From a virus, in the IMG/VR virus record IMGVR_UViG_3300002460_000044, positions 1 through 48,850 of that record: 48,850 nucleotides of DNA. One strand, given 5' to 3'. Position numbers and translations under genes: made by a program. The notes beneath the pieces were generated by a model. That model was not told the DNA's origin, did not search any database, and saw nothing but the letters and a program-made list of their open reading frames with translations. Positions 4,308 through 31,128 of this stretch are shown piece by piece. The stretch's first letter is position 1. Each line of letters starts with the position of its first letter.

Positions 4308-4628
4308 TTAAGCGGTTGTAGTTGTACTACTACTAGTTGATGTGGTACTAGTACTAGTAGTTGTAGTGCTTGTAGTCGTACTGGTAGAAGTAGAGGTACT
4401 AGTACTAGTAGTGGTTGTGCTAGTGGAAGTACTCGTACTTGTAGTAGAGGTCAGGTCACTACCCTTCTGACTAGTACCAAGCCTCTTGCTTATCCCGCCA
4501 ATAATAGTATTAAATGTTGCATTTAAGGTATGCGTAAATTCATTTTTTCTCTGCTGGAAGGTACTAACTTTTCTATTCGTACCTCCCGACATGTCTTCGA
4601 TAGAGTATTCCTGTTCGTTGTCTGGCAT
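4308..4628 (-). CDS. Small structural protein with C-terminal Ser/Thr tract (mucin-like tail)
   Basis: 106 aa. A 59-aa unique N-terminal region is followed by a 46-residue pure S/T tract (4314..4451) and a terminal Ala. Tightly packed between structural genes. Confidence 0.6.
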   Translation of the reverse strand: MPDNEQEYSIEDMSGGTNRKVSTFQQRKNEFTHTLNATFNTIIGGISKRLGTSQKGSDLTSTTSTSTSTSTTTTSTSTSTSTSTTTSTTTTSTSTTSTSSSTTTTA

Positions 4629-8785: not shown

Positions 8786-8824
8786 AAACCCTTCCTCCAT
8801 AAGTATCCGTGGGTCATATTTCAA

Positions 8825-15926: not shown

Positions 15927-16564
15927 TTTAGCTCCTCATCTGTTAATTCTGAAATGAATTTAAAAGTGGTATCCCCATCCCAAGGAAATGGATCCCATTC
16001 TTCTTCCATCTGCCTCATACCATTCCTGCCTTTAGAATCGGCTACGTTTATATCTTCTACGTGTCCATGAACCATTAAGGGATTACAAGTACAGTATGAA
16101 AGTAACCCTTCAGGTCGCTTTTCTCGATTGTAATGCTGATCCGCCACTTTGTATTCTCTTTCCATGAGAACCTGATATACCAACTGAGGGGAAGAATTGA
16201 CTGGTTTGGTTGAATCGGGAGTTTCATTATAAGGCTGGGGAAAAGTGATTTGCCAGCCTGGAGCCTTAAAAATTTTAGAGAAGCCCATATTTTCTGCTCT
16301 CTGGAGAAAAATATTAGCTGTATTAGTATCCCACTTGAGAACCTCGAAGTTATCATCGTGCCTCCATCCATGAACTAAAAGATCCACCCAATCCCTGTAT
16401 GGATTAAGTAGTTTAATAAAATCCGCCGTCATTCGGCCAGGGATAGCGAACATATTTACTTTAAATTTAGGGTACTTTGATTTCCAATACAATAGAAAGT
16501 TCATTCCGTTCCTATCATATTTATTTTCGAAATCGTCAAAGTCCAAGCAAATTGTCGAACTCAT
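15914..16564 (-). CDS. NodB/CE4-like polysaccharide deacetylase-like protein
   Basis: 216 aa. CLDFDDF resembles the TFDDG motif and LLVHGWRHDD resembles H(S/T)xxH. FKVNMFAIPG is also present. Motif-level call only. Confidence 0.4.
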   Translation of the reverse strand: MSSTICLDFDDFENKYDRNGMNFLLYWKSKYPKFKVNMFAIPGRMTADFIKLLNPYRDWVDLLVHGWRHDDNFEVLKWDTNTANIFLQRAENMGFSKIFKAPGWQITFPQPYNETPDSTKPVNSSPQLVYQVLMEREYKVADQHYNREKRPEGLLSYCTCNPLMVHGHVEDINVADSKGRNGMRQMEEEWDPFPWDGDTTFKFISELTDEELKCQN

Positions 16565-17498
16565 TCATCATCCTTTCCAAGGAATACTTATCCTCGATAT
16601 ATTTTCTAAGTTTTTTAGGTTCTTCTTTCGGTAACTTTATCATTTCTACCGCTTCTTGGTGGGTCTGATATAAATATTCATGAGACCATATATTCCTGCT
16701 ACCATAAAAATCATTTACTACTGGGGTAATTCCTTTTGCCATAGCTTCTCCTACAGCATAGCAAAAACTCTCTTTCATTCCTGGATGTAATAATATGTCT
16801 ATATTCTCATACCACTGGTTCATATCGTCTTGAGACGGGTACAGCGTAACTACTTTCCCCAATCCTCTACTCTCAATATAATGATTGTACATCACTCCCC
16901 AGTAAGGGGTACCACCTTCGTGCTGGCCTCTTATGTGTAGCCTCCACTTTGGATTTTCTTTATATAAAGTATTGAATATATCCAAACCTCCCATGTGGTT
17001 CTTCGGCATCCACATATCACCAAGCACCATACCTAGTTGATAACCGTCAGTTTTCTTTTTCTTTAAGGTAAACTTCTCTAAGTTCACAGATGGCCTTATT
17101 AACTTTAATTTACCTTTCCAGGTAGGAGCCTTCTCCAATATATATTTCTCAATGTGCGGTGCTATACAGATTCCTTGATCAATAAAATCTATGTAATGTT
17201 GTTCGTAGAAGGGTACGTAAGCGTTCCAGACATCCCAATCGATCATCCTGCAAACTATCTTTGGCTTCTTGTTATTATTCCAATCGGGGGTACGACTAAC
17301 CCCTTCTACTCCGTTATATAATTTCCACAAGTAGTTTATATTCCCCTCAAGCCACTCCACGTAATATATATCCGCCCATTGAGCCAGATACTCACTAGCC
17401 CCACGTTCGTATTTAACCTCATGACCTTTTTTATCCCAATGGTCAATAATATCCTGACAAAATTTCTTACCAGTATTGTCCGCTACAGCAATTTTCAT
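16536..17498 (-). CDS. GT-B fold (GT4-like) glycosyltransferase
   Basis: The track ORF starts at TTG 17522. I prefer ATG 17498, which overlaps the upstream stop as ATGA. An EX7E motif ESFCYAVGE is followed by AMAKGITPVV. Confidence 0.6.
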   Translation of the reverse strand: MKIAVADNTGKKFCQDIIDHWDKKGHEVKYERGASEYLAQWADIYYVEWLEGNINYLWKLYNGVEGVSRTPDWNNNKKPKIVCRMIDWDVWNAYVPFYEQHYIDFIDQGICIAPHIEKYILEKAPTWKGKLKLIRPSVNLEKFTLKKKKTDGYQLGMVLGDMWMPKNHMGGLDIFNTLYKENPKWRLHIRGQHEGGTPYWGVMYNHYIESRGLGKVVTLYPSQDDMNQWYENIDILLHPGMKESFCYAVGEAMAKGITPVVNDFYGSRNIWSHEYLYQTHQEAVEMIKLPKEEPKKLRKYIEDKYSLERMMNEFDNLLGL

Positions 17499-18196
17499 TT
17501 TCTTTTTAAAACTATTATCCAATCATGTCCTTTAACTTCTTTACCAATTCCTTCTGCAAGCTCTAATAATTTCCATTCAGAATTAGTATCTAAATATTTT
17601 AGAACCTTTTTTCTTGAATATGAATTAGTATATTCATTGGAATAGAGCTTTTCTTCTGGTGTACCTCTATGATCTATTATATTTTTAATCTCATGCTCTT
17701 CCGACTCAATAAATGGAACCCATCCGACCACGATAACCAGCTTCTTAGCTACTCGACAATGCTCATCCATCGCCTCCTCAAAGCTGTTCATATGGTCAAC
17801 TACGTGGCGAGAATATACTACATCCCAGCTTTTATCTGGTTGGTCTATTTTGTGGATTGAAGGATTGTAATCAAAAAACATATTCCCAAATTTTCCTTTA
17901 CACCATTCAGTATTTTTGGGAATTACATCTAAGCCCAGATAGAAAAATCCAGGTTTTCCAAACCAATCAATTTCCTTATCATCTCGTAATGCTTCAAAGG
18001 TGGTTCCAGAACCTGCTCCATAATCTAAGAAAGTATCATTTTTTACATACTTTTTGATTGCATAGAGTTGGGAAGGATGGTTTGGGCCGTTTCCTCCTCC
18101 CCTACAAAGAGTAGGTACATCCGGGGTATTAAACCATAGCTTTTCTGGATTTACTTTTGACACTGGCCTTAGATAATTTACGGGATTTTGTTCCAT
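17495..18196 (-). CDS. Class I SAM-dependent methyltransferase
   Basis: Motif I is FLDYGAGSGTT. The track start 18271 overlaps the upstream gene by 94 nt. Internal ATG 18196 has SD AAAGGA and reduces the overlap to 19 nt. Confidence 0.6.
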   Translation of the reverse strand: MEQNPVNYLRPVSKVNPEKLWFNTPDVPTLCRGGGNGPNHPSQLYAIKKYVKNDTFLDYGAGSGTTFEALRDDKEIDWFGKPGFFYLGLDVIPKNTEWCKGKFGNMFFDYNPSIHKIDQPDKSWDVVYSRHVVDHMNSFEEAMDEHCRVAKKLVIVVGWVPFIESEEHEIKNIIDHRGTPEEKLYSNEYTNSYSRKKVLKYLDTNSEWKLLELAEGIGKEVKGHDWIIVLKRK

Positions 18197-19140
18197 TCTT
18201 TTCCTTTCGCTAAGTAATTTTCTATTAGTTCTCCTAATTGGGCCATACGACAAGCAGATGTAAACTCCCAATGCTCACTTTCACACTCTTGGTCAGGTAT
18301 ATCTTTTAACATTTCTATAGCTTGTTTTGGTGTACTAAAAAACCCTACTGCTGGGCAAGTTAGCATCAGTTCCATCCCAGGGGCATATTGCTGACACAAC
18401 TTTCCACCGGCCCGTAGTACTTTACCTACCCGATTACTCCAATAACCCCAACAATTAGGATTGACACTAAATCCTAGTACTACCTTACTTCTAGCTATTA
18501 ACGCATTATATGCAGCACCATAAACAGCAGGGACAGCTTCAAAACCTTCTTTTATCCATTCTTCATAATTCCACGAGAATATTTTTACAGGTATTTCCTT
18601 GTTAATCTCTGTCAGAAAAGGCACTCTATCTCCCTGCTTTAAATAACTTCCAGTAAACACCACGTCATATTCTTTTGGTGACCCTCTAAAGGTAGGTAAA
18701 TCCCCATCACACACATCCATCTGAAAGTAACAAGGTTTTATTCCTTGTTTTACGTATTCAGGGAAAAGTCCTCCTTCTCCTGATAAATATAAATCAGCTG
18801 CTCTAGCCATTCCCAAATGCCAATCTGGAAAGCCTTGATCCCACATGTAATCCCATACCCAATATAGGACGGGGGCTCCACTTAGTTTCCTTAACTTCTC
18901 AGTGAAACTCCCATCGTAGAAGTGGTGCCATTTACAAATAATGTTTATATCAGCCTTTAAATCTTCTGGCACATCATACTTACCTTTAGGAAATCCCTCG
19001 ATAACATACTCCCGCCAAGCATCTCTGGGTATTCTATGAACTGTGTTACCTAGCCTCTCCAATTCTCTAGCTAAATGAACTTCGTCTGCTTCTTCACCTA
19101 CGTAGCCTTTTTGGTAATTGCCAATGAAATTTATTATCAT
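18178..19140 (-). CDS. CgeB-like / GT-B-like glycosyltransferase candidate
   Basis: 320 aa. DVVFTGSYLKQGDRVPFL and WSNRVGKVLRAGGKL resemble the CgeB/Glyco_trans_1_2 pattern. ATGA overlap with the upstream stop. Weakest of the GT calls. Confidence 0.4.
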   Translation of the reverse strand: MIINFIGNYQKGYVGEEADEVHLARELERLGNTVHRIPRDAWREYVIEGFPKGKYDVPEDLKADINIICKWHHFYDGSFTEKLRKLSGAPVLYWVWDYMWDQGFPDWHLGMARAADLYLSGEGGLFPEYVKQGIKPCYFQMDVCDGDLPTFRGSPKEYDVVFTGSYLKQGDRVPFLTEINKEIPVKIFSWNYEEWIKEGFEAVPAVYGAAYNALIARSKVVLGFSVNPNCWGYWSNRVGKVLRAGGKLCQQYAPGMELMLTCPAVGFFSTPKQAIEMLKDIPDQECESEHWEFTSACRMAQLGELIENYLAKGKEWNKIP

Positions 19141-19646
19141 AATTCCACCTTACTCATACTAGTATTTTTATCTATTCGTTTAAATAACTCCCACTTATTT
19201 ACTTTGTGGGTATTTACAAACTCGGCTACAGCTTGGACTACTCCAGGACTAGATTCATCACAATCGTGGAAGAGCATTACTCCGTCTTCTTTCATGTAGG
19301 GATACCACGATTTAATATCTGTCTTGCACCCCTCGTATGAATGATCCCCATCTATAAACAAAACAGCTATTTTCCCATTTGCCCAAGTTTTAGCAATCTC
19401 CTCACTTTTTCCTTGCTTAAATACCGTTCCTTCAATAAATACTGGGTCTTTAATATCTATACCAACTACAGAAACACCTGTCTTTGCCGCTTGACTAGCA
19501 ACCCACAAACTCCTACCCTTATCCACCCCAATTTCTACATAACTGTCCCCTGCATTTAATTTCTCTATCTCTGGTATCAATATCTCAGCATCAAAGGTGC
19601 TAAATGCCCCTTGTGGTGCTTCTTTGTCTAGTCTTTCGAGATCCAT
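19137..19646 (-). CDS. Class I SAM-dependent methyltransferase (Methyltransf_24 / CmcI-like)
   Basis: 169 aa. YVEIGVDKGRSLWV (motif I), VVGIDI, and LFIDGDHSYEGC, which is typical of this family. Confidence 0.6.
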   Translation of the reverse strand: MDLERLDKEAPQGAFSTFDAEILIPEIEKLNAGDSYVEIGVDKGRSLWVASQAAKTGVSVVGIDIKDPVFIEGTVFKQGKSEEIAKTWANGKIAVLFIDGDHSYEGCKTDIKSWYPYMKEDGVMLFHDCDESSPGVVQAVAEFVNTHKVNKWELFKRIDKNTSMSKVEL

Positions 19647-20118
19647 AGTTTCTTTCCCAATTCCTTTCTGCGTTTATTCTCGCTTGTACAGCCAAATCAT
19701 AATCTTTAAAACAACCAGCCCATTTTGCTATTCTATTCCTCTTTAAGGAAACAAACCAGTATTTTCCTTTATATAAAGTTACTCCTGGTATTCCACTAGT
19801 ATTATTACTTTGTAGTCCTTTATTTAATACATTTTCACTTCTTGTAACAACTCTCAAATTTTTTCTTCTGTTATCTAATTTATTTCTATTTTTATGGTCA
19901 GTCTCAACTTTAATTAAAATTCCTCTTGGATTTCCTAAGATAATCCTGTGCATATAGATTTTCCTATTCTTACCATTAACCCACTGATTTCTATGAGCAT
20001 AACCATTAGATCTATCAAAACACCATTTCCACTGGTTTAGCCAATTAAAGTCTTCATCGTCAACTAAAGCATATCTGCCTTGTGTTAATTTAATTTTTTT
20101 TACTGTATTTGCCTTCAT
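19600..20118 (-). CDS. HNH-AP2 homing endonuclease inserted in the glycosylation island
   Basis: From internal ATG 20118: MKANTVKKIKLTQGRYALVDDEDFNWLNQWKW..GYA...MHRIILG..VETDHKNRNKLDNRRKNLRVVT (HNH_3), then SGIPGVTL..KYWFV...WAGCF.DYDLAV.AR (AP2 domain). It overlaps the upstream GT by 29 nt and the downstream methyltransferase by 47 nt. Confidence 0.8.
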   Translation of the reverse strand: MKANTVKKIKLTQGRYALVDDEDFNWLNQWKWCFDRSNGYAHRNQWVNGKNRKIYMHRIILGNPRGILIKVETDHKNRNKLDNRRKNLRVVTRSENVLNKGLQSNNTSGIPGVTLYKGKYWFVSLKRNRIAKWAGCFKDYDLAVQARINAERNWERNYGSRKTRQRSTTRGI

Positions 20119-20899
20119 AATCAGGCGTAAATACCCTTTCTGGAGACTTTGGTATATCAAATGTAGCCTCCCATATTCCATCATCAGTTCTATTAAATCC
20201 CCATTTTTCTCGGAAGTAGGCGTAGTTTCGGAATCTATATGAATCATTTTCTGGTAGGAAAGTGCCTGAAGTTTGGGAGAAGTGATAGACGATACAATTA
20301 GTATTCTGGTATGGCTGTACTCCTGCAAGTTTAATTTTATATTCTAAATCCGAATCTCCGTTCGATCCAAAAGGATCGAAGTTAATATCATATCCTCCAA
20401 TTAAATCCCACAAATCTCTTCTTATAAGAAAAGGTAGATTAAATCCTGTTCTAATTCCTTGTCCTTCATATTCTTCTGCAAACTTATTCCATTTTTTTTC
20501 ATTAAAATCGTTTATACCCCCACAATCAAAAACTTCAAATGTTGGTGCTCCTGAATTCGGTTCTACAAGTTTCGGCGAAATACACAACATCTCTTCGGAT
20601 AATCCAGCCAATAAGTTTTCTAGCCACCTTTCTGGATATACCATGTCATCATTTGTAACTAATATCCAGGGATGATTTGTAGTTTGGGCAGCTGCATTTA
20701 CCGCAATACATTGTCCTTGTTGATTGATTTTTATATCACCATTTATAACATTATAAATACCATTTACTACTACACTTATACTAAGTGGTGTTCTTATAGT
20801 TGTTTCGGTTAAAGATCGATAGCAACGGCTTAAAACTGGCTTAGTCTTTTGTGTAGCCAAAGTAGGGATGATAACTAAAATATCGTTAGGTAATATCAT
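20090..20899 (-). CDS. GT-A fold glycosyltransferase
   Basis: ILVIIPTLATQ... and VTNDDMVY (DxD-type). I prefer ATG 20899 (SD GGAGAAG 7 nt upstream) over track start 20935. Confidence 0.55.
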   Translation of the reverse strand: MILPNDILVIIPTLATQKTKPVLSRCYRSLTETTIRTPLSISVVVNGIYNVINGDIKINQQGQCIAVNAAAQTTNHPWILVTNDDMVYPERWLENLLAGLSEEMLCISPKLVEPNSGAPTFEVFDCGGINDFNEKKWNKFAEEYEGQGIRTGFNLPFLIRRDLWDLIGGYDINFDPFGSNGDSDLEYKIKLAGVQPYQNTNCIVYHFSQTSGTFLPENDSYRFRNYAYFREKWGFNRTDDGIWEATFDIPKSPERVFTPDYEGKYSKKN

Positions 20900-22004
20900 T
20901 ATTAAACTTCTCCATACTGCTAATAATATAATCAAGATCAGATTTTTTTAGCCCCTGATGACACCCAAATAATAATCCATGTCTATTCACCCGCAGGGCT
21001 TCTGGATAATTCCGGTTATTTACCGTAATATATGGCTGATTTATTAAGGGCATTATAGTTCTGGTAGTAATCCCTTTTTTCTCTAAATACAAGATAAGTT
21101 CATTTCTCCTAAGATGAAAGAAAGGAAACATCATAAAGGCGTGATTATCTAAGTAGCTGTCTGGGTGGTGGTTACCCAGTTTTTTTGATAAGTACCTAGC
21201 GTTTTCTTGCCTCTTACTTAACATATTCTGCCAATTTTCCAGTTCTACCAACCCCAAGGCAGCTTCCATCTCCGTACTCCTACTTGAATAACCTGGATAA
21301 TTAAATCTAAATCTTGCTTCAATTACTTCTGGATTGTACTTATCATCGTCATCTATTTTCATATATTTGTTGTCCCTACCGTGAAAGACTAGACTACGGA
21401 TAAGATCAGCTAGTTTTTGGTCATTGGTACAAGCCGTACCGCCTACACCAGTAACAAGAAGGTGAGCAATGTAAAACGAAAAACAGGTTACATCTCCAAT
21501 TCCAACTCCATCTACAAACATAGTTTCGCAAGAATCCTCAATGACCTTTAATTTATACTTCCTGGCAATTGCCATAATTTCTTTCATTTTAGCTGGCTTA
21601 CCTAGTAGGTGGACTGGCATAATTGCACGAGTTTTTGGTGTAATTGCAGCCCCGATTAAATCTGGATTTAGATTAATATCCTTACCTATATCAACTACTA
21701 CTGGTGTCAGATTATTATGTACAACCACGTTGTAGGTCGCTACAAAAGTCACAGAAGGTATGATAATCTCATCCCCGTCTTTCCACTTACCTAGTATCTT
21801 CAAAGCGTGTATGGATGCTTGAAGGGCCGAAGTACCACTATTTGTGAACACCCCATATTGGTTATTGTGAAGTTTGGAGAATTTATCCTCAAACTCGGCT
21901 GTCATCGGGCCATAGGAAAGTCGGTTGCTTTTCAAAGCTTCAACTACTTTATCTATATGTTTCTGGCTCACGTGGATCGTGCCTACATCTATCGTTTTCT
22001 GCAT
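20886..22004 (-). CDS. DegT/DnrJ/EryC1-fold sugar aminotransferase/dehydratase with His at the PLP-lysine position (ColD/E1-like?)
   Basis: 372 aa. FTNSGTSALQASIHAL is present. In FSFYIAHLLVTGVGG, H aligns with the K of the canonical SFHxxK motif. Confidence 0.7.
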   Translation of the reverse strand: MQKTIDVGTIHVSQKHIDKVVEALKSNRLSYGPMTAEFEDKFSKLHNNQYGVFTNSGTSALQASIHALKILGKWKDGDEIIIPSVTFVATYNVVVHNNLTPVVVDIGKDINLNPDLIGAAITPKTRAIMPVHLLGKPAKMKEIMAIARKYKLKVIEDSCETMFVDGVGIGDVTCFSFYIAHLLVTGVGGTACTNDQKLADLIRSLVFHGRDNKYMKIDDDDKYNPEVIEARFRFNYPGYSSRSTEMEAALGLVELENWQNMLSKRQENARYLSKKLGNHHPDSYLDNHAFMMFPFFHLRRNELILYLEKKGITTRTIMPLINQPYITVNNRNYPEALRVNRHGLLFGCHQGLKKSDLDYIISSMEKFNNDIT

Positions 22005-22651
22005 ATAAACATAAAATTATAATGGCTAGAATCGGAATTTAACTGCTCCCCCTCGGCTGTTTCTTGTATAGTTAACTCCGCTTCTTCAAAGGCTTCTTCC
22101 AATGCTTGCTTAGAATATTCTTGCAGGTGGGTATCCTCCCAGGGTTCCTCTTCTTCTTTTTTACCCATCATATTTCGATCGTTTAGATTTGTTCCTTCAT
22201 TCACAAAAGAACGCCACAGAATAATAATTACATACTTTCTAGCTACTTTAGCCATTTCTTTTATGGCTGATTTATAGTCATCGAGATGATCTAAGGTGTG
22301 CATACAAACCACAGCATCCCAAGAGTTGTTTGGTTCTTTTAGTTTTCTGGCATCCTGTATCTCGAAACTTCCTTCTGGAAATGTATCTTTAGCTATGGCC
22401 ACCATCGCCCAAGAATAATCTATACCCTTGTATTCAAATCCATAATCTTTATTCAATTCATATAATGGGCCTGTACCACAACCAACGTCAAGAAAGCCCT
22501 CAATTCCTAACTCTTTCATCTTGTCCAATAAATAAATTCGGTGCTTCTGTGACCCCATCTGGTAGGTTGATTTAAAGGAATCCCAGTAAGTTCTTTCAGT
22601 TTGTCCGTTGTGCATCTTCCTCCATTTTACGATCATATTCTTCTGGGTCAT
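21989..22651 (-). CDS. Class I SAM-dependent methyltransferase
   Basis: Motif I FLDVGCGTGPL, and VVCMHTLDHL. Start ambiguous: ATG at 22651, 22636, or 22615 (the last with SD GGAGGAAG). Confidence 0.65.
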   Translation of the reverse strand: MTQKNMIVKWRKMHNGQTERTYWDSFKSTYQMGSQKHRIYLLDKMKELGIEGFLDVGCGTGPLYELNKDYGFEYKGIDYSWAMVAIAKDTFPEGSFEIQDARKLKEPNNSWDAVVCMHTLDHLDDYKSAIKEMAKVARKYVIIILWRSFVNEGTNLNDRNMMGKKEEEEPWEDTHLQEYSKQALEEAFEEAELTIQETAEGEQLNSDSSHYNFMFICRKR

Positions 22652-23255
22652 TGTCTAAAAGCTGCAAATTAGTACCAGCCATAATATGAGTTATAATGGT
22701 CTTGTTAGTATCAGTCCACTTACCTAACCGCTTATACAAATCTTGCTCTGCTAACAAGGAAAGATTCTCATTCCACCTGCCTATTTCTTCAAAATGCTTC
22801 TTTGTAATCATCATTAGTCCAGCATCTCTACCACCCCTCATACTCTCTTGATCAAATGAATCTCTATTATAAGTGGCCTTCACGTATTCTCTGCTTCTTG
22901 GGACTTGATCTGGAAATACTGCGTCATAACCTTGTTCAATATATTGCCTAAGACCTGGCAACCATCCTTCGTGAACAAAAACATCGTTTTGAATAAATAC
23001 TAGGTACTCACCTCTAGCAACTTGTGCTCCTAGATTCATGCAAACGGTGTAGCCTGGATCATTGGGTAAATTAAAGTATTTATCCACTTTCAATACGTTG
23101 TAATCATCTCTTATTGGAAATTTAGGTACTGGATTCATCACAATCAGTTCGTAGTCTTCTGGATCAGTAAACTTGGTTATATTGGCAATACAAGCCATCG
23201 ACATGTGAGCGTTAAATCTGGAGTTGTTAAAACAGGTCAAAATTATACTCGTCAT
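22596..23255 (-). CDS. GT-A fold glycosyltransferase
   Basis: 219 aa. MTSIILTCFNN..., DPGYTVCMNLGAQVARGEYLVFIQNDVFV. ATGA overlap with the upstream stop. Confidence 0.55.
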   Translation of the reverse strand: MTSIILTCFNNSRFNAHMSMACIANITKFTDPEDYELIVMNPVPKFPIRDDYNVLKVDKYFNLPNDPGYTVCMNLGAQVARGEYLVFIQNDVFVHEGWLPGLRQYIEQGYDAVFPDQVPRSREYVKATYNRDSFDQESMRGGRDAGLMMITKKHFEEIGRWNENLSLLAEQDLYKRLGKWTDTNKTIITHIMAGTNLQLLDNDPEEYDRKMEEDAQRTN

Positions 23256-24133
23256 AGATTTGCCTTTATATCCCTTTCTAAACTGGTAAGCAAGGGTCGC
23301 CTATAAATACTTTTTAGTACCTGAATATCAGCTATGGCACTTTTCACCCCAAAGTCAGTATTCTGATAAACTACCTCGATATTTTTCTTTCGACTGGCCT
23401 TTTTGAATATCTCGGCTAGTTTGTTCATTGAGGTTCCTAACCCACTACCAACATTGATAAATTTACCCTCAAAATCTGGGTTCTTAATCGCTTCGAGAAT
23501 GATCTGGACTATATCCACTATACTGACAAAATCCCTAACTTGCGTACCATCCCCGTGAATTACCAATTTCTTGTCCTGCACCCCATTTAAGAACCTATTT
23601 ATCACACTGTCATCCTGCGGGGTCGGGTTAAAACCATAGATATTAAAAAATCTAAATACAACAATCGGAAGTCTATATCTTAAAGCCGCACACAAGTACT
23701 CACATTCTATCTTGCTTTGCCCATAAGGGTTATTTACTTCCAACTCGTCTGTTTCTCTTATCGCTGTCCTCCCAACAATTTTATATACAGAAGCCGAAGA
23801 AGGAAATATAAACTTGGCTTTGTTTTGCTCGGCTGCCAATAATGCTCTAAGAGTACCTTTGGTGTTCAAGGCTAAAGTAAACTCTGGGTCTTTTATTGCT
23901 TGGCTAACCGAAACTTGAGCCGCTAAGTGGATAATTACGTCAGCATCTTTGGTTTCTTCCATAAAATCCGGACTGAATATATCTTTTCCGTCACGTATAT
24001 CCCAACCAACAGCGTTTGGTAAGGCCCGCATTAGATGAGTACCAATGAAACCACGACTGCCTGTTACGACAATTTTCTTTTGTTTGGTTAGTTTTTTTAG
24101 CATTTCATTTAGGGAGCCAAGTTTCGTTGTCAT
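23252..24133 (-). CDS. NAD-dependent nucleotide-sugar epimerase/dehydratase (extended SDR)
   Basis: 293 aa. Rossmann motif VVTGSRGFIGTHL, SSASVY, and catalytic YGQSK (YxxxK). Confidence 0.75.
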   Translation of the reverse strand: MTTKLGSLNEMLKKLTKQKKIVVTGSRGFIGTHLMRALPNAVGWDIRDGKDIFSPDFMEETKDADVIIHLAAQVSVSQAIKDPEFTLALNTKGTLRALLAAEQNKAKFIFPSSASVYKIVGRTAIRETDELEVNNPYGQSKIECEYLCAALRYRLPIVVFRFFNIYGFNPTPQDDSVINRFLNGVQDKKLVIHGDGTQVRDFVSIVDIVQIILEAIKNPDFEGKFINVGSGLGTSMNKLAEIFKKASRKKNIEVVYQNTDFGVKSAIADIQVLKSIYRRPLLTSLERDIKANL

Positions 24134-24809
24134 ACGCCTCCATCTGGTCGAACTGCCCTACATAATCTTTTAATTCAGCATTGTGTTTTTGCATCTCTGG
24201 TGTAAACGATTCGGGATAACCCCAATTAGTCTTTCCAAAAGGATGATAAGCTCTAAGCTTAGTGGTTCTACCCGTTTTCCAGCCATTACCTTGTAACCTG
24301 CTGCAAATCCATCTTTCTTCGTTATTTCTGCCACTACTTATTTTATGTTCCCAACCGTTTACTTTTCTTACTGCCTCTGTCCTCATTATTCTCATTACCG
24401 CCCCGCACATATTTACTTCCTTCACATCTTCTGGGTCTTTTGGGTCAAAACCAACCGCCCCAATAAGAATGTGAGGATGTAAAGAAATTGCTCCGTAAGT
24501 TGGTCTTTCATCCATAAACTTAACCATTTGTGAAAGCCAATCTGGCTCTGTCTGCGGTACATAAATATCATTATCACTCGTAATAAAATATTCGCTTTCA
24601 GATAGAGCCAAGGCAATATTCCACGCTCCGTGTATCCCAATATTTTCCGATAAACCAACATACAAATCCACTTCATCCTTAAATTCCTCATTTCCGCCGT
24701 TATCAATAATTGTTAGCCTATACGGGGTCTTAGTACGCTCTTTCAGATACTTAATTGTATTTGCAGTGAAATGCTGTCTTAGAAACGTGGTGAGAAATAT
24801 ATCTATCAC
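24105..24809 (-). CDS. GT-A fold glycosyltransferase
   Basis: 234 aa. RLTIIDNGGNEE, NIGIHGAWNIAL, ITSDNDIYV. The GTG start overlaps the upstream stop as GTGA. Confidence 0.55.
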   Translation of the reverse strand: MIDIFLTTFLRQHFTANTIKYLKERTKTPYRLTIIDNGGNEEFKDEVDLYVGLSENIGIHGAWNIALALSESEYFITSDNDIYVPQTEPDWLSQMVKFMDERPTYGAISLHPHILIGAVGFDPKDPEDVKEVNMCGAVMRIMRTEAVRKVNGWEHKISSGRNNEERWICSRLQGNGWKTGRTTKLRAYHPFGKTNWGYPESFTPEMQKHNAELKDYVGQFDQMEAYDNETWLPK

Positions 24810-25603
24810 TCTACCCCCTGTTTTGAATGGACTATGTACAAGTATTCATCTATTGGTTTTGAGTGGTACTTTCTTGTGTAGGAATACCATAAAGCAAAAT
24901 CATTTCCCCACGGGTTACCTAATTCTTTAATTATCTTATTTGGTTCAGCTTCATGATCTACCATAAAGAATTCACGCAGTTCTGGATATTTTATTTGGTA
25001 ATAAGCCGAGAAATCATACGGACTTCCCATATATAAATCCCTAACTCCTCCGTAATTTATCTCCGTACAATCTATATCCTTAATATGCGTAGGAGGATAA
25101 GCCCTCAAGTCATCATAAACACCTCTATGCCAAACAAACGTCCCATTTACTATATTTCCCCCTCCAAACACCTCGTGGCCTACTTTTAGTTTTTTTGGCT
25201 TAAAGGTTCCTCTCAAAACGGTCCCGCCGTCTGCATGAACATACCTAGCCCCAAAGTTAAACATTTTATACTTAGGCCACTTTCTAAAAAAGTAATCCAC
25301 CCTTTCCAAATAATGCTTCTCATATTCGTCATCACTATCCAAAAGGCAAAATATCTGTCCCTGAGCGTGCTTGAAGCCTTCATTCAAGGCTACCACCCTT
25401 TCATTGTGAGACACATTTACCACATTCAGTCTTGAATAAGGCGGTATCTCAAAGTCTTGGGTACTACCGTCATTGACTACTATATGTTCGTAGTCCCTAA
25501 AAGTTTGAGCCTCCACACTATCAATAGCCCTTTTTAGACTCTCCTTCCTATAATTATTCCAAATGTTTACTGGAGTTATAATTGACAGTCTTGGACTAGC
25601 CAC
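24806..25603 (-). CDS. Family 2 glycosyltransferase
   Basis: LSIITPVNIWNNYRKESLKRAIDSVEAQTFRDYEHIVVNDGS and LDSDDEY (DxD). I prefer GTG 25603 (SD AAGGAG 7 nt upstream) over track start 25636. Confidence 0.7.
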   Translation of the reverse strand: MASPRLSIITPVNIWNNYRKESLKRAIDSVEAQTFRDYEHIVVNDGSTQDFEIPPYSRLNVVNVSHNERVVALNEGFKHAQGQIFCLLDSDDEYEKHYLERVDYFFRKWPKYKMFNFGARYVHADGGTVLRGTFKPKKLKVGHEVFGGGNIVNGTFVWHRGVYDDLRAYPPTHIKDIDCTEINYGGVRDLYMGSPYDFSAYYQIKYPELREFFMVDHEAEPNKIIKELGNPWGNDFALWYSYTRKYHSKPIDEYLYIVHSKQGVE

Positions 25604-26366
25604 CCCACTTCTCCTTATACTTCTCCCTGCTCTCATTCATCAAATCAGGGGTTTCGACCATCCCCGTGCTAGTACCCCCAATCACATGGTAAATATTAAC
25701 CTTTTTAGTACTGGCATACTTTTTACCTGCCTCATCCATCCTCTTGAGGAAATCCAAGTCCTCTAAATAAACAAAAAACTGCTCGTCAAATGTTCCAATT
25801 TCCCTAAAAAGGGATTTCCTAGCCAAAACGCAGGAAAAGTCCCTAAAATCGCTAAAAGCCTCTCGAAAATCTTTGCCCTCCCAAAGTTTTGCCTTATCAG
25901 AAGCCTCTACCGCCCTAGAAAAAGGCTCACCATACATAGGAGTAGCCATTACTAGGTCAAGCTCTTGCAGGGCCTCCTGAAGCCCCTCAAGCCAAGAGTC
26001 AAAAACCATAGCGTCATTATTAAGCAAGCAGACGTACTCGCCACTACTTACCCTAATTGCTTGATTCCAAGCAGCGGCTATTCCCTTATTTTGTTCATTT
26101 ACTATTACTTTATCTACTTTGTAATCCGAAAGTTTAGCAAGTTTTATTGGAGAAGCATTATCCACCAATATAATTTCGTAAGGAAGTTTAGTGTATTCTC
26201 TCACCGATCCTATACAATTTCCTGTGTAGTGAAGCAAAGGATAGTTGAGATTATGACAAAGAATAATTATTGAAGTTAATCCTGCGACTTCGCTAGGATT
26301 ATCGGCAACATTTTGTGGGCTATTTATAGTAGTCCAGGTTTCCTGACTAATGGTTTCAGTTTCCAT
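25596..26366 (-). CDS. Family 2 glycosyltransferase
   Basis: 256 aa. TSIIILCHN, EIILVDNASP, NKGIAAAWNQAI, LLNNDAMV. Confidence 0.65.
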   Translation of the reverse strand: METETISQETWTTINSPQNVADNPSEVAGLTSIIILCHNLNYPLLHYTGNCIGSVREYTKLPYEIILVDNASPIKLAKLSDYKVDKVIVNEQNKGIAAAWNQAIRVSSGEYVCLLNNDAMVFDSWLEGLQEALQELDLVMATPMYGEPFSRAVEASDKAKLWEGKDFREAFSDFRDFSCVLARKSLFREIGTFDEQFFVYLEDLDFLKRMDEAGKKYASTKKVNIYHVIGGTSTGMVETPDLMNESREKYKEKWGG

Positions 26367-27114
26367 AGGATTTATTTATTTCCTGTACTTTTTGTAATAG
26401 TTGATTTTGGCTAAAGTTAGCAAACGCTTCTAAGTCTTTAGGCAAACATCTGCCGCCAACGCCTTTGTGGCCTTTATGGCCTACGTAAAAGTGATGTTGA
26501 CTTCCCCAAGGATGCTCAAGAAGCCTATCTCTAATATAGGTATAATTGGCACCTATTTTCTGGGCTATATCGTTCATTTCCTCGGCAAAGACTACTTTTA
26601 AAGCAAAAAAGCTGTTGAAAGCGTATTTGGTCATCTCGGCAGTTATTGTGTCAGTCATCTTAGGTTGGAGATACTTATACCTAGCGTCGTAAATAGCTTT
26701 TACCTCATTACCGTAGTTTGGATTGTCCGCCCCAATTATTACCATTACCGGTCTTTTAGCGTCTAGTTCCCATTGGCTTTCGGTAAGAAACTCTGGATTC
26801 GATACCACTCTATCCATATTCATACTTTCCATAATTGCTCTGGCTGTTCCTGGAATTACTGTGGAACGAATAATATAGAGGGGATTCGCCCTTATCCCCT
26901 CAATTTGCTTGATGGTGTCTCTGATTGCCGTTGTGTCACAAGTACCTTCCTTGGTGGGCGTAGGCAAACAGAGGAATACGTAGCGGCAATTTGCAGCATC
27001 ATTTAAGGTAATATTGCTATCACCATTTATATCAAAGTATTTAGTTATTCCAAAGGCTAGGGCGGTAGCCTTGCCGACTACACCCCAACCAATAATACAA
27101 GAATTTTCCATCAA
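26356..27114 (-). CDS. UDP-glucose/GDP-mannose 6-dehydrogenase-like protein, short form
   Basis: 252 aa. GWGVVG Rossmann motif, NPEFLTE, KYAFNSFFALKVVFAEE, and catalytic-Cys motif GGRCLPKD about 27 aa before the stop. The usual C-terminal UDP-binding domain appears to be absent. Confidence 0.6.
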   Translation of the reverse strand: MMENSCIIGWGVVGKATALAFGITKYFDINGDSNITLNDAANCRYVFLCLPTPTKEGTCDTTAIRDTIKQIEGIRANPLYIIRSTVIPGTARAIMESMNMDRVVSNPEFLTESQWELDAKRPVMVIIGADNPNYGNEVKAIYDARYKYLQPKMTDTITAEMTKYAFNSFFALKVVFAEEMNDIAQKIGANYTYIRDRLLEHPWGSQHHFYVGHKGHKGVGGRCLPKDLEAFANFSQNQLLQKVQEINKSYGN

Positions 27115-28442
27115 TAGAGTAAAGGTTCAAGCTCATGTTTGAATATAAAATCTAAGTTTCTTTCCTTCCTCAGTCTTGTGGCCATGGCCATTTCTGGATG
27201 TTGTAGTCTGGCCGCTATTGCTCCTGCCGTATCATAATGATAATCTTTCTCGTATTTCTTTCTTTCATCATCCGAAGCGTTCTGCGGCCCGTAAGCTGTA
27301 TTTGTATTTCCATCCATAGCGTTCATTATATCTATATTACTGGAGTACTTTCTAAATATGGCGTTCTCACCGAAAATATTTCTGAAAGGCGGAAAGTCAA
27401 AGTTTAAAACCACGACTTGCTTAGTCAGACCAGCTTCCTGAGTAATTAGAGAATAGCTTTCACTAGCCGAAGGCATAATAAATACATTTGAAAGAAGCTG
27501 GAAATCCCTTACCACGCTTTGAGGCACTTCTACCTTCCAATTCTCGTTTTCCTCGCTGGTAAAAGTAATTTCATTGCTGTTTAGGCCATAATCTATGGCT
27601 ATCTGCTTTAGCTCTTCCCTATAAGTAACTTTATCTCCGCCAGTAGAGTGGAAGTCAATTATTATTACTCTTACTGAAAGGTCGAAATCTTTCAATTTAG
27701 CCATTGTTTTGATGACGTATTGAACCTGCTTGCCTCTATCTAACCTTATCGGATAGGTACAAATAGCGTCTGCCGAAAGTATCTTTTTCTTGTCAACCAC
27801 CTCCTGTACTTCCTTACTTATACCCAAAAAACCGCAAATGTCAGTTGGGTGGTGAACTACTTTTACCAACTCATCACTAACCCCAAAGTTCTCGGCTATT
27901 CTCGGAATTGAATAATGATTAAAGAAGACGTAGTAGGAGTTAGGAAATGGTTTTCGGACTAAGTCGGTGTACTCACTACCAAAATTCTGCAATGCTCCCA
28001 AGGTGACTGGACTAGTTGCCGAGTGTATCCAGTGCAACCACTTAGCATTTTTCTTAGCGGCTACTCTTCTTGAGGCAAAATTATGCTTTAAAGCAGCGGG
28101 CTGATAAATAATATCGTGGGTTAGTACTACACTACCATCAGTAATTATTTCATCAAGCCTTCTTTCAATATTAGCCACATCTTCATCAAAAGTGGGGTCT
28201 TTTTTTATTTCGTTGTGGCAAGGAACAAGGGGAATTTTTTCTATAGTTACATCTGGATGGGCGTACATCTGGTCTGGCTGGAAACTTTCTTGGACAATAA
28301 CAGTCACTTTATACCTGTTACGGGTAAACATCTTAATCTGATCCTGAACCACCCGATTAAGACTGTAAGCTTCACTTATTTCGGAAAATGTCGTAAATAG
28401 GATTATTTTCCTCGAGAAGTCAGTACCTTCCATTATTTTCAA
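27111..28442 (-). CDS. GT-B fold (GT1/GT4-like) glycosyltransferase; first gene of the island
   Basis: 443 aa. EX7E motif ESYSLITQE followed by AGLTKQVVVLN. The track start is TTG 28442; ATG 28433 is an alternative. Confidence 0.55.
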   Translation of the reverse strand: MKIMEGTDFSRKIILFTTFSEISEAYSLNRVVQDQIKMFTRNRYKVTVIVQESFQPDQMYAHPDVTIEKIPLVPCHNEIKKDPTFDEDVANIERRLDEIITDGSVVLTHDIIYQPAALKHNFASRRVAAKKNAKWLHWIHSATSPVTLGALQNFGSEYTDLVRKPFPNSYYVFFNHYSIPRIAENFGVSDELVKVVHHPTDICGFLGISKEVQEVVDKKKILSADAICTYPIRLDRGKQVQYVIKTMAKLKDFDLSVRVIIIDFHSTGGDKVTYREELKQIAIDYGLNSNEITFTSEENENWKVEVPQSVVRDFQLLSNVFIMPSASESYSLITQEAGLTKQVVVLNFDFPPFRNIFGENAIFRKYSSNIDIMNAMDGNTNTAYGPQNASDDERKKYEKDYHYDTAGAIAARLQHPEMAMATRLRKERNLDFIFKHELEPLLY

Positions 28443-28481: not shown

Positions 28482-28805
28482 CTAGTCGTACACTACGAAT
28501 GCCTCACCATTAAAGTCGGCACCTTGTTCCAGCTCTACGTAAAGTCCCTTTGTCATATTTATTGGCCTGGCAGGGGTAAAACAGGTGCTTTCACCTGTAT
28601 TAGCAGCCAACACAAAAGAGTCCGCTGAAGGAGCTGGTTGGACCGAACCGTTAGCAGAATCGTACACTCTTACAGCCGCTGCCGAACCGCCAGCAGTGAT
28701 TACAACAGCAACTAGTTCTACTCCACCAGCAGTTGAAAGTTGCTCACTGGTGTTATTACTATTCAGCGTGTATTTATATCTGGCTCTGCTAGGTTTGTTT
28801 ATCAT
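28482..28805 (-). CDS. Small beta-rich hypothetical structural protein (107 aa) at the upstream edge of the island
   Basis: ORF in the late operon with Ala/Gly/Val-rich beta-like composition. No motif recognised. Confidence 0.45.
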   Translation of the reverse strand: MINKPSRARYKYTLNSNNTSEQLSTAGGVELVAVVITAGGSAAAVRVYDSANGSVQPAPSADSFVLAANTGESTCFTPARPINMTKGLYVELEQGADFNGEAFVVYD

Positions 28806-28808
28806 AGA

Positions 28809-29255
28809 TTAAAAATACCCTGGCTTCCTTTTAAAGGAGCCCATATACTCATCATCAGTCTGCAAGCCTTCCCCATACCAAGGAACACCGTCTTTATCCA
28901 CACCCTCGCCATAAGGGATTCCTTCGGGGTCAGTTAATCTTGAAGCTCTCTCTTTATCAGCAATTTCCTGCGGTGTCACAAATTCTTCGCCTTCTTCTGT
29001 TTTTGGTTCTTCAGTATGTTGTTTTTCGTGTTGTATCACGGCCACCTTATAATCGTTAGCATAATCTCCATATTTACAAGTAAATTTACCTTCTAGCTTG
29101 ACCTCCTCTAACCACGGATAGGTCTGTTGTAGCCTATTAGCCACAGGGTTATCGAAAGTTTTAGTTTCTCCTAAACCAAGGGCATACATTTTCTTCTGGA
29201 ACAAAAAGTCTCTTATTGGTGCCCCTTTTTCTTTTGAATTAGTTAGAGTTATCAT
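28809..29255 (-). CDS. Hypothetical protein (148 aa) with an acidic central segment
   Basis: ORF tightly packed in the late operon. No motif recognised. Confidence 0.45.
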   Translation of the reverse strand: MITLTNSKEKGAPIRDFLFQKKMYALGLGETKTFDNPVANRLQQTYPWLEEVKLEGKFTCKYGDYANDYKVAVIQHEKQHTEEPKTEEGEEFVTPQEIADKERASRLTDPEGIPYGEGVDKDGVPWYGEGLQTDDEYMGSFKRKPGYF

Positions 29256-29262: not shown

Positions 29263-29535
29263 CTATAATGTAGTAGTCGTGCTAGTACTCGTGCTGGTAG
29301 AAGTAGTAGTACTAGTGGAGCTACTTGTGCTAGTCGTAGTCGTACTGGTACTTGTAGTAGTCGTGGAAGTTGACGTACTGGTGGTTGTCGTTACATCCCC
29401 AAACACCCACTGCGTACCGTTATAAACTACCCATTGGTTAGTATCATTTTTGAAGAAGAAATCTCCTGCGATTGGCTCGCTTGGAAATGTTGTTTGGACT
29501 CTTCTTCTTGCTGTAAAACTACTAAACTTTGTCAT
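29263..29535 (-). CDS. Capsid-adjacent small protein, paralog 3: 48-aa N-domain plus 41-aa Ser/Thr tail
   Basis: 90 aa. The N-domain carries GDFFFKNDTNQWVVYNGTQW. S/T tract at 29269..29391. It is one of three tandem paralogs downstream of the capsid gene. Confidence 0.6.
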   Translation of the reverse strand: MTKFSSFTARRRVQTTFPSEPIAGDFFFKNDTNQWVVYNGTQWVFGDVTTTTSTSTSTTTTSTSTTTTSTSSSTSTTTSTSTSTSTTTTL

Positions 29536-29537
29536 AA

Positions 29538-29810
29538 TTACCCCGTTGTGCTAGTTGATGTACTCGTGCTGGTACTAGTTGTCGTAGAAGTACTAGTTGT
29601 CGTAGTACTGGTGCTAGTACTGGTGCTGGTTGTCGTTGACGTACTTGTACTGGTTGTACTGAAAACATAAACTAGCCAATTATTTCCCGAATATCTCGCC
29701 CAAGCATTAGTGCTGGTGTTGAAGTACTCATCACCTGACACTGGCCCCGTTGGGTCGCTTGTTGCTGTTCGTATTCTTCCTTTTAGATTGCTTAAATGAG
29801 TGTCAGCCAT
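29538..29810 (-). CDS. Capsid-adjacent small protein, paralog 2: 50-aa N-domain plus 39-aa Ser/Thr tail
   Basis: 90 aa. The N-domain carries GDEYFNTSTNAWARYSGNNW. S/T tract at 29544..29660. Confidence 0.6.
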   Translation of the reverse strand: MADTHLSNLKGRIRTATSDPTGPVSGDEYFNTSTNAWARYSGNNWLVYVFSTTSTSTSTTTSTSTSTSTTTTSTSTTTSTSTSTSTSTTG

Positions 29811-29819
29811 AATTCATCC

Positions 29820-30146
29820 TTATATAGTCGTAGTCGTACTGGTACTGGTAGTAGTCGTACTGGTACTGGTGCTAGTTGTTGTTGTACTCGTGCTTGTTGA
29901 GCTGGTACTAGTTGATGTACTCGTACTTGTACTGGTACTCGTTGTTGTTGATGTACTGGTAGTCGTTGTCGACGTTGACGTTGTACTAGACTGCGCAAAC
30001 GCCAAACCTCGCCACTGAACACCATCCCATCTCATCCACGTATTCTGGGTTGTATTGTAGTATTCATCACCCACATCGGGGCTGCTTGGATTTACTGTTC
30101 CTGTTTTTAGATGTCCTCTTAAACTTGATACTTTAGTTGTAGGCAT
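29820..30146 (-). CDS. Capsid-adjacent small protein, paralog 1: 52-aa N-domain plus 55-aa Ser/Thr tail
   Basis: 108 aa. The N-domain carries GDEYYNTTQNTWMRWDGVQW. S/T tract at 29826..29990. Confidence 0.6.
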   Translation of the reverse strand: MPTTKVSSLRGHLKTGTVNPSSPDVGDEYYNTTQNTWMRWDGVQWRGLAFAQSSTTSTSTTTTSTSTTTSTSTSTSTSTSTSSTSTSTTTTSTSTSTTTTSTSTTTTI

Positions 30147-30173
30147 AAAACTCCTGATTTAACGGTTCTGGAC

Positions 30174-30196
30174 AGGGGGGCCGAGTAAGCCCCCCT
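30174..30196 (-). terminator. GC-rich stem-loop just after the major capsid gene (partial terminator or mRNA stabiliser?)
   Basis: 8-bp stem (six G-C pairs in a row: gggggg/cccccc) with a 7-nt loop, 15 nt downstream of the capsid stop. No clear U-tract. Confidence 0.3.
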
Positions 30197-30210
30197 CGCC
30201 CAATTAGTTA

Positions 30211-31128
30211 CTAGCCACTGTAAGCAGCGCCGTCTCCTTGACTGCCCCAAACACCTCGCCAATCAGACCAACCACGAGAAAATCGTTGTCGGCTCTTAAA
30301 TAGCGCCATGTCGGTGTCAAAGGAATCGTCTTGCTTGAATTCTGGTTTTATTCTGTCAAACCAGTTTAGCTCGTGAACGCTGCTATCAATCAGGAACCAG
30401 TGAGTTGCGTTCCTGTCCATGAAAATCCAGTCAATAATCTTGAATTTACCTTGGTAGACATTAGCATCATTGTCAGCCGTACCCTGTCGTTGAGGTGAGT
30501 CAACAATAAGATGGGCTGTTTTTCCTAGATCAATAGGTACCAGAAGCGTGTCTGGCATTACGTCAATTCGTTGCCCCTTGTCATCAAGCTGGTTTCTCGC
30601 TGCAATTAATGCAGTTTCCAGGTTTTCCTCGGTTAGAGTAATACCTGTAGCTGAAGCGTTGCTTTGAGAAGCACCACCATCACTTCGTGGGTGAACAGTG
30701 GAACATAGCTCCTGGCTATCCCCGCCAAGGAAAGAGGAGTTGAAAGCTCGGTTTAGAACCTGAGCGGCTTCTCGCTCTCTTGTCCTTCTAGCGCTTTTAC
30801 CCAAAGCGGCTGGTTTCTTGTTGATAACATTGTAAAGGTCATCTTCCCACATTTCTCGGCTGACCTTAAAGCCTTTAGTGTATTTTAAGTGGGAATACAC
30901 TGTGTCATACATCTGAACTGGGTCTTCATAATCAATTGGTGCGCCTTCTGCGGTTTGTTGCATGTAGCCAAACCCAGTTACACCACTGTCACGCTCATCC
31001 TGTTTTCCAGATGTATTAACGTGGAATATTGAGTTTAGAACCTGCGGAACCTCGTTATATCGGTCATCAAAGATTTCCCGAAATCCAGGCTCAAGCAGGT
31101 CACCGAAATCTGATCTATAAGTTGCCAT
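30211..31128 (-). CDS. Major capsid protein (HK97-fold candidate)
   Basis: 305 aa. Sits in the portal-scaffold-capsid order and is followed by a strong hairpin. Overall resemblance to HK97-type capsid proteins is judged by eye only. Confidence 0.65.
   Translation of the reverse strand: MATYRSDFGDLLEPGFREIFDDRYNEVPQVLNSIFHVNTSGKQDERDSGVTGFGYMQQTAEGAPIDYEDPVQMYDTVYSHLKYTKGFKVSREMWEDDLYNVINKKPAALGKSARRTREREAAQVLNRAFNSSFLGGDSQELCSTVHPRSDGGASQSNASATGITLTEENLETALIAARNQLDDKGQRIDVMPDTLLVPIDLGKTAHLIVDSPQRQGTADNDANVYQGKFKIIDWIFMDRNATHWFLIDSSVHELNWFDRIKPEFKQDDSFDTDMALFKSRQRFSRGWSDWRGVWGSQGDGAAYSG

Follow-up and report, generated by a model that had tools for sequence, protein, structure and literature searches.

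Three tandem proteins with serine/threonine tails beside the capsid gene of an uncultured tailed phage: candidate carriers of a phage-encoded glycan coat

Why should a tailed phage place, directly after the gene of its major capsid protein (MCP), three small related genes whose products end in long runs of serine and threonine? The question is raised by paralogs A, B and C of the IMG/VR virus record IMGVR_UViG_3300002460_000044, which was analysed over its whole stretch of 48,850 nucleotides (the window). An earlier reading of the same DNA, referred to here as the original prediction, took the three products for capsid decoration proteins whose tails project from the shell as glycan carriers. 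Our analysis leads to a related proposal: A, B and C would be mini-fibres of the virion surface that carry glycans made by the phage's own pathway. Judging from sequence and predicted structure, we give this reading, in which both the presence of the proteins in the virion and their glycosylation are deduced, a probability of roughly 0.55.

Three paralogous genes follow the major capsid gene

Each of the three open reading frames (ORFs; Table 1) encodes an N-domain of ~50 aa followed by a pure Ser/Thr tail of 40-57 residues. The motifs GDEYYNTTQNTWMRWDGVQW, GDEYFNTSTNAWARYSGNNW and GDFFFKNDTNQWVVYNGTQW were found verbatim in the three ORFs, and the peptide TATSDPTGPVSGDEYFNTSTNAWAR is an example taken from the N-domains. 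Between A and B the N-domains share 41% identity over 51 aa (E 5e-16); for A and C the figure is 36% over 42 aa (E 3e-10). A plausible ribosome-binding site precedes each gene, the gaps between the ORFs are 9, 2 and 7 nt, and paralog A starts 64 nt past the MCP stop. Combined, these data confirm that A, B and C are genuine genes and genuine paralogs. The description in the original prediction, three consecutive paralogous ORFs of 90-108 aa, agrees with this down to the outer coordinates. The abrupt change from N-domain to tail that it had noticed was found at about residue 49-53, with one other residue (Ile, Gly or Leu) before the stop, and the trio does lie, as it had stated, directly after the major capsid gene and a G+C-rich hairpin.

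To place the trio among its relatives, metagenomic contigs reached with the MCP or with a glycosyltransferase of the window (GT4, described below) as query were compared; they are numbered here as L loci. The order A-B-C directly after the MCP gene was found in at least 12 diverged metagenomic lineages. The trio is present in every related contig that spans the region except L021 (61% identity in the MCP), which carries one copy and not three. The MCP lineages with the trio comprise near-identical strains (L001-L007, L011, L012) and others at MCP identities of 85%, 78-80% and 65%, and three more trio lineages were found via the GT4 gene. When the 36 N-domains of 12 lineages were compared, 34 had their nearest neighbour within their own positional group, which indicates that the triplication is old and that the three copies have stayed distinct. 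Orthologs of A range from 99 to 149 aa, the variation in length being confined to the tail; B has 89-95 aa in its complete unfused orthologs, and both B and C are of ~90 aa in most lineages.

The tails themselves carry a signature of selection. In the 1,530 tract codons of the genome, the ten codons for Ser and Thr all occur at the frequencies of ordinary genes, and Tandem Repeats Finder reported units in the tract DNA that match at only 60-85%, a few short exact copies aside. The B tail of the window (29541-29660) and that of L012 (11490-11609) are 100% identical as protein, and 28 of their 39 Ser/Thr codons differ. Imperfect repeats, background codon use and the identity of the B tail together argue against a recent microsatellite origin of the Ser/Thr tracts. 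At the conserved Ser/Thr residues in the rest of the same two genomes, the codon differs in 62 of 160 cases (Fisher p = 3e-4 against the B tail), indicating that synonymous turnover is faster in the B tract. On this codon evidence the Ser/Thr tails are under selection as protein. The scrambling of codons possibly prevents recombination among the many Ser/Thr tracts of the genome.

The N-domain and its possible place on the particle

The N-domain profile was run exhaustively against 1.84 billion representative proteins and gave 1,935 proteins, with E-values down to 3e-92 for repeat proteins, compared to only 3 matches in a word-indexed homolog search with the N-domain alignment. Three groups can be distinguished. 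The first consists of small full-length relatives made of an N-domain and a Ser/Thr tail. In the second (P0029, P0064 and P0093, three clusters with a mutual identity below 50%), B and C are fused: a B domain is followed by a linker of 17-20 aa, a C domain and one Ser/Thr tail ending with Leu. The third group contains large proteins in which a core unit of ~33 aa, SFPssPxxGDlfYrTDxxxLYxYnGsxW, occurs in up to 22 copies. These repeat proteins score on DUF2793 (PF10983) up to E 1e-11, with P0005, P0015 and P0028 above the cut-off, and weakly on Mtd_N (PF18454); some of them also have Prophage_tail, CBM_4_9, BppA or CHAP domains. The scores and the accompanying domains make the repeat proteins look like phage tail or fibre proteins, and it is through such intermediate sequences that the N-domain is linked by homology to DUF2793/Mtd_N. 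In direct scans of A, B and C against Pfam and PHROG, nothing curated was found; a weak match to phrog_8309 (E 2.6e-5) was obtained, and there was no Pfam match at E 0.01.

The structure of the N-domain, which the original prediction had suggested modelling, was predicted with AlphaFold2 (AF2) as a four-strand beta module (pLDDT 78). The N-terminus of the CBA120 tailspike TSP3 was matched with a probability of 0.98, E 0.14, TMq 0.62 and 26% identity, values that carry weak statistics for a domain of 52 residues. Other fold matches in the PDB were Mtd (TMq 0.46, again for a small domain) and collagen trimerisation domains. The matches in BFVD (E 1e-3 to 3e-2) were collagen-repeat phage proteins, T7-like tail fibres, Mtd_N proteins and a 'sericin-like' cyanophage protein; two of the BFVD matches bear automatic 'decoration' names. 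The list of the 50 best fold matches of the N-domain in the PDB contains none of gpD, Soc, Hoc, Dec and gp8.5, and these were likewise absent from the PDB profile matches and from the Pfam and PHROG matches of A, B and C. By this chain of sequence matches, the N-domain belongs in the class of fibre-anchor modules of the DUF2793/Mtd_N type, the link being transitive and below threshold. DUF2793 N-termini have been proposed to fasten variable C-terminal portions to the particle, and proteins of this type have been seen in virions by mass spectrometry (bioRxiv 10.1101/150227); Rcc00171 of RcGTA is another DUF2793-type example.

How the three anchors might associate is suggested by the fusions. 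In L036, the sole fusion case with usable flanks, a separate A gene lies ahead of the B~C fusion. Combined with the kept identity of the copies, this arrangement suggests a hetero-oligomer with a 1:1:1 stoichiometry. A, B and C may accordingly be pictured as one heterotrimeric anchor, probably with three sheets in a prism, as at the N-terminus of Mtd. In the mechanism that we propose, this four-strand N-domain, of a kind thought to trimerise and to dock fibre proteins on the particle, would hold the mini-fibre in place.

Where on the particle it would do so is the weakest step of the proposal. The head is favoured as the most probable site because the genes are positioned beside the MCP gene, a position that fits the capsid decoration proposed originally. 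That half of the original prediction is not established, the relatives of the N-domain being tail-fibre, tailspike and collagen-like fibre modules. Because these relatives are mostly tail proteins, a location on the neck or tail is a serious rival: the mini-fibres would be the same glycan carriers, mounted as whiskers or side fibres. We regard this arrangement as unlikely on balance, and it nevertheless accounts for several observations. The closest relatives of the N-domain are tail-fibre, tailspike and tail-associated modules, DUF2793 proteins have been described as tail components, and a fourth protein with a Ser/Thr tail (4308-4628) is encoded among the tail genes. The hairpin after the MCP gene also suggests that the trio is expressed below the MCP. 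The 76-nt stretch that holds it folds with -28.7 kcal/mol (z = -2.0), hairpins of the same kind, with base changes that compensate one another, are found after the MCP gene in L012, L013, L019 and L033, and in L020 a canonical terminator is found at the same position. Against a neck or tail mounting, the trio is attached to the MCP gene in every lineage, an island of 13 kb separates it from the tail genes, and the two BFVD matches mentioned above are named decoration proteins. The head-fibre gene gp8.5 of phi29, moreover, presumably occupies the same MCP-adjacent position.

A glycosylation island and the Ser/Thr tails as putative acceptors

Starting 380 bp downstream of the trio, in the same operon and within the late structural operon, lies a glycosylation island that encodes about 17 enzymes. 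About 10 of them are glycosyltransferases, namely 3 of the GT4-type/GT1-like class (among them a 443-aa GT4) and 7 of GT2. The sugar-nucleotide enzymes are a nucleotide-sugar dehydrogenase, an NAD epimerase/dehydratase and a DegT/PseC-type aminotransferase, and there are 4 S-adenosylmethionine (SAM) methyltransferases, one of them TylF-like, as well as an inserted HNH gene. No transmembrane segment was found in the island proteins, and their Pfam and NCBIfam matches included no Wzx, Wzy, priming transferase, lipid-carrier or DNA-modification family. An island with neither transmembrane segments nor a flippase, polymerase or lipid-carrier family points to a soluble, cytoplasmic acceptor.

The 443-aa GT4, the first enzyme of the island, is the likely candidate for the initiation of O-glycosylation of Ser/Thr. 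Its AF2 model (pLDDT 87) matched generic GT-B enzymes (BshA, MshA, trehalose and sucrose-phosphate synthases) with a TM of about 0.35. GtfA was absent among the 50 best fold matches listed; a comparison with PDB sequences gave no match, hence none to GtfA, and the only match in NCBIfam was a weak one to MshA. It was the one enzyme used as a tblastn query against 50,697 phage genomes, where nothing was found at E 1e-5. The family is nevertheless large in metagenomes, with 987 homologs; more than 120 clusters have an identity of at least 59% to the window enzyme, many of them on contigs of 40-52 kb.

The island and the Ser/Thr genes were found together repeatedly. All lineages that were found with the MCP and that have a Ser/Thr gene after it also carry the GT4 and the island, provided that the contig is long enough to show them (L012, L022, L017, L021, L024/L027); MCP relatives at 32-45% identity have neither Ser/Thr genes nor glycosyltransferases within up to 10 kb. 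As the co-occurring lineages are essentially one MCP clade, this association is weak when taken alone, and it was not treated as a probability. The neighbourhoods of GT4 homologs in distant contigs are more telling as sequence evidence. There the enzyme adjoins Ser/Thr-tract proteins that differ from one contig to the next: a 288-aa protein encoded after the MCP gene and carrying a C-terminal tail (L044), proteins of 232 aa (L024) and 488 aa (L050), LamG-like and 958-aa-type Ser/Thr proteins (L042), and another mini-anchor (L041).

The window itself encodes three Ser/Thr-tract proteins besides the trio (Table 1). A homolog of the 958-aa protein that also carries a Ser/Thr tract is encoded in L042. 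The background codon use of the 1,122-aa ORF indicates that it is the gene of a mucin-like polymer. Together, the Ser/Thr acceptor tracts (9.4% of the genome) and the island account for about 37% of the genome.

The mechanism that we propose for the glycan carriers would run as follows. The tails would be disordered acceptors, O-glycosylated in the cytoplasm by the soluble enzymes of the phage; the GT4 would start the glycan, and the ~9 other glycosyltransferases, the 4 methyltransferases and the sugar-nucleotide enzymes would extend it. The outcome would be a mucin-like glycan coat formed by the trio and the three further Ser/Thr-tract proteins. The glycan-carrier half of the original prediction is strongly supported by the island and by the Ser/Thr proteins that co-occur with the GT4, glycosylation being the step that we infer. 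More tentatively, a whole widespread clade of uncultured tailed phages of ~45-52 kb may build its own mucin-like coat in this manner, from A:B:C anchors with three glycosylated tails and polymers of up to 1,100 residues, with ~17 enzymes, ~37% of the genome and a selected order of Ser and Thr.

Several results weigh against the glycan-carrier proposal. The N-domain scores below every Pfam gathering threshold (the best DUF2793 E-value is 0.048, and 2 of 21 family members match), the N-domain profile found nothing relevant among PDB sequences, and the fold matches of so small a domain are weak (PDB E 0.14). Its relatives are mostly tail-fibre proteins, which speaks against a strictly capsid location. 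The GT4 model superposes poorly on generic GT-B enzymes, and the acceptor is unreadable from it. Finally, the phyletic association may reflect one clade and a single gain.

Some of these points could be turned into a different account, in which the Ser/Thr tails carry no glycan and act as hydrophilic, disordered bristles or spacers, the island being directed at another target such as the surface polysaccharide of the host or DNA. In addition to the GT4 model, from which the acceptor cannot be deduced, this account can call on the fact that phage glycosyltransferases often act on DNA or on the host O-antigen (PMC5852040). We consider it improbable. The late structural operon encloses the island, whose products have no transmembrane segments and gave no flippase, polymerase, lipid-carrier or DNA-modification family among their Pfam and NCBIfam matches. 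The GT4 adjoins unrelated Ser/Thr-tail proteins in distant lineages, and the exact order of Ser and Thr has been kept under saturating synonymous change, which a spacer would not need. Less probable still is a non-structural role, either as soluble glycan primers or decoys released at lysis or as assembly chaperones for the large Ser/Thr proteins. The small size of A, B and C and their conserved partnership with a zinc-finger-like protein of 148 aa and a protein of 107 aa would suit such a role, but the N-domain class occurs in virion fibres, the genes are in the head module and the distinct identities of the three paralogs fit fixed structural positions. The last reading, that the ORFs are artefacts of non-coding repeat DNA or of antisense Leu/Val-rich ORFs such as public annotations of relatives place here, is effectively refuted, as the Ser/Thr frame follows without a break from a conserved N-domain with start codon and ribosome-binding site, lies on the operon strand, stops one residue past the tract in every ortholog and preserves the protein while the codons, used at background frequencies, change.

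In the public gene calls of L033 (8433-9104), L034 (8209-9015) and L035 (8784-9594), the tails are covered by short antisense ORFs or left as gaps. Such calls imply that the trio is commonly unannotated or misannotated in the relatives.

The surrounding phage genome and comparison with known systems

The coordinates of the features under discussion are collected in Table 1.

Table 1. Features of the trio locus and of the related Ser/Thr-tract genes, in window coordinates
Feature	Position	Strand	Description
Paralog A	29820..30146	minus	108 aa; N-domain aa 1-52 (29991-30146); Ser/Thr tail aa 53-107, then Ile
Paralog B	29538..29810	minus	90 aa; N-domain aa 1-50; Ser/Thr tail aa 51-89, then Gly
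Paralog C	29263..29535	minus	90 aa; N-domain aa 1-48; Ser/Thr tail aa 49-89, then Leu
G+C-rich hairpin	30170..30201 (approx.)	minus	between MCP stop and paralog A; no U-run
Major capsid protein (MCP)	30211..31128	minus	HK97-type; PF25209 Phage_capsid_4, E 3.5e-17; Mu gpT-like
148-aa protein	28809..29255	minus	follows the Ser/Thr-tail gene(s) in every relative with the downstream region read
107-aa protein	28482..28805	minus	conserved; between trio and GT4 gene
GT4 glycosyltransferase	27111..28442	minus	443 aa; GT-B retaining type; PF00534, E 2e-6; first island enzyme
Glycosylation island	15012..28442	minus	13.4 kb; 27.5% of genome; co-oriented with head and tail genes
1,122-aa ORF	8825..12193	minus	tract with 1,076 of 1,081 residues Ser/Thr
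958-aa protein	5948..8824	minus	260-residue Ser/Thr tract (~6095-6874), then 48-aa C-terminal segment
Fourth small Ser/Thr-tail protein	4308..4628	minus	106 aa; tail-gene module, between structural-protein and tail-fibre genes

The ends of the window are an exact direct overlap of 75 nt (1-75 = 48776-48850), from which it follows that the window is a complete assembly of ~48.8 kb, circularly closed or terminally redundant. Its backbone is that of a tailed phage (large terminase, P22/SU10-type portal, scaffold-like protein, MCP, tail fibre, beta-helix tailspike); the window yielded no tail-tube gene. The MCP ends with ...GDGAAYSG and has no Ser/Thr extension. Its closest relative among the phage genomes, at 39% identity, is that of Bacillus phage PK1, and a blastn search with window positions 27000-33000 against the 50,697 phage genomes gave zero matches; by these sequence comparisons the window phage is without a cultured close relative. 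In L024 (8033-9725) and L027 (7757-9449), the MCP gene was found in two matching pieces separated by ~650 nt, as if an intron, intein or nuclease had been inserted into it.

The 106-aa protein combines a 58-aa N-domain unrelated to that of the trio with a Ser/Thr tail of 47 residues that ends with Ala. The ordinary flanks of the 1,122-aa ORF are just 23 N-terminal and 18 C-terminal residues, its codon use is that of the background, and the end of its tract has a motif in common with that of the 958-aa protein, ...TTTT[F/V]PY[V/P]I[D/N]V. The 148-aa protein matched no family or PDB entry. Its orthologs (L008 2845-3300; L009 2105-2656; L021 5444-6019) have a zinc-finger-like (C2H2/zinc-ribbon) C-x2-C...H-x3-H motif that is degenerate in the window copy, and a C-terminal motif, D.DG..W.G.G.Q, is common to all of them. 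Neither the 107-aa protein, in family or PDB searches, nor a 197-aa neighbour, against PDB sequences, gave anything meaningful.

Homologs of the GT4 with an identity of 35-45% were also found in L045, L048 and L049, inside ORFs of ~560-690 aa on gammaproteobacterial contigs of 0.2-3.6 Mb from metagenome-assembled genomes (MAGs). No long Ser/Thr-tract gene is adjacent there, and L048 offers no more than a tract of 20 residues in an ORF of 138 aa; these homologs may be cellular relatives with another role. The MAG titles of the GT4 homologs are contradictory and cover many phyla, including archaea, so that they point to no particular host.

Downstream of the island, a cassette of three genes on the minus strand (12212-14501) encodes proteins of 168, 170 and 393 aa. 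It recurs in L038-L040 within a different, siphovirus-like backbone with a protease, capsid, tail tube and tape measure of its own; there, the protein of 393 aa is 89% identical. From this distribution the cassette looks like a mosaic module. A search for orthologs of the 1,122-aa gene through the 393-aa protein, its upstream neighbour, led instead to this other backbone. Three homing-type nuclease genes are present in the window, at 511-954 (minus), 14560-14940 (plus, opposite to the operon) and 19600-20328 (minus). One is LAGLIDADG-like ('GIIDGEGC') and two are HNH, one of the latter lying within the glycosylation island.

Documented cases of glycosylated structural proteins in phages are rare (PMC5852040), and relatives of the window phage are common in environmental metagenomes. 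If our proposal is true, A, B and C would represent the first family of dedicated glycan carriers to be described in phages, encoded by short genes which standard gene calling overlooks or reads on the wrong strand. Tailed phages would then be capable of making complex self-encoded glycoprotein coats from a modular anchor and acceptor, and the trio would provide a compact natural scaffold for the display of glycans on particles. Whether such a coat serves to shield the particle, to make it adhere to host polysaccharide or biofilm, or to stabilise it as a colloid would become a question in its own right.

Comparison with known systems brings out what is particular to the trio. phi29 gp8.5, lambda gpD and phage L Dec are small proteins that are encoded beside the MCP gene and project from the shell. 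The trio is like them in its position, and differs in that all three are missing from the 50 best fold matches of the N-domain listed from the PDB; to our knowledge, none of them has a Ser/Thr tail. With the DUF2793/Mtd_N modules and TSP3 of CBA120, the N-domain has in common a short N-terminal beta module, predicted in its case, and a motif of the type P..P..GD.Y....W..(Y/W).G..W. In contrast to DUF2793/Mtd_N proteins, its payload is a Ser/Thr tail and not a receptor-binding or enzymatic domain, and there are three paralogs, not one protein.

In the mycobacteriophages Che8, Corndog and Myrna, phage enzymes glycosylate capsid and tail-tube proteins, according to the account of Freeman 2023 given in PMC11600133 and PMC12363180. 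In those phages, so far as this account describes them, glycosyltransferases and O-methyltransferases are encoded with the structural genes; likewise, ~10 glycosyltransferases and 4 methyltransferases are encoded here in or next to the structural operon. The acceptors described there are capsid or tail-tube subunits, served by ~2-4 enzymes, whereas dedicated anchor-plus-tail and giant Ser/Thr proteins and ~17 enzymes are found here. The mycobacteriophage analogy drawn in the original prediction consequently holds in the sense of 'works like', with acceptors that are dedicated small proteins in the present case and, in place of glycosyltransferases such as Che8 gp110 or Corndog gp38, a GT4 for which tblastn found no match in the phage genomes.

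Ser/Thr-rich disordered regions are glycosylated in streptococci (PMC12041528). The serine-rich repeat glycoproteins of Gram-positive cocci resemble the proposed system in that long disordered Ser/Thr tracts serve as O-glycan acceptors and a GT4-type enzyme adds the first sugar, there to the unfolded tract. Unlike the GtfA/GtfB system, the window gave no GtfA match and no GtfB-like or accessory Sec gene among its family matches, and the setting would be a virion and not a cell wall. Autonomous glycosylation is also known from giant viruses, with the fibrils of Mimivirus and Vp54 of chloroviruses (PMC4691112). What these viruses share with the window phage, if our reading of the island is right, is a glycan pathway of several enzymes, encoded by the virus itself, with which the surface of the particle is decorated; they are viruses of eukaryotes with other acceptors and enzymes, whereas here a tailed phage of 49 kb would spend about 37% of its genome on its coat. 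The trio system is a member of none of the mycobacteriophage, serine-rich-repeat and giant-virus types, its resemblance to each being functional only. It is, on our reading, a form of phage-encoded virion glycosylation that is unusual in its scale and in its modular carriers.

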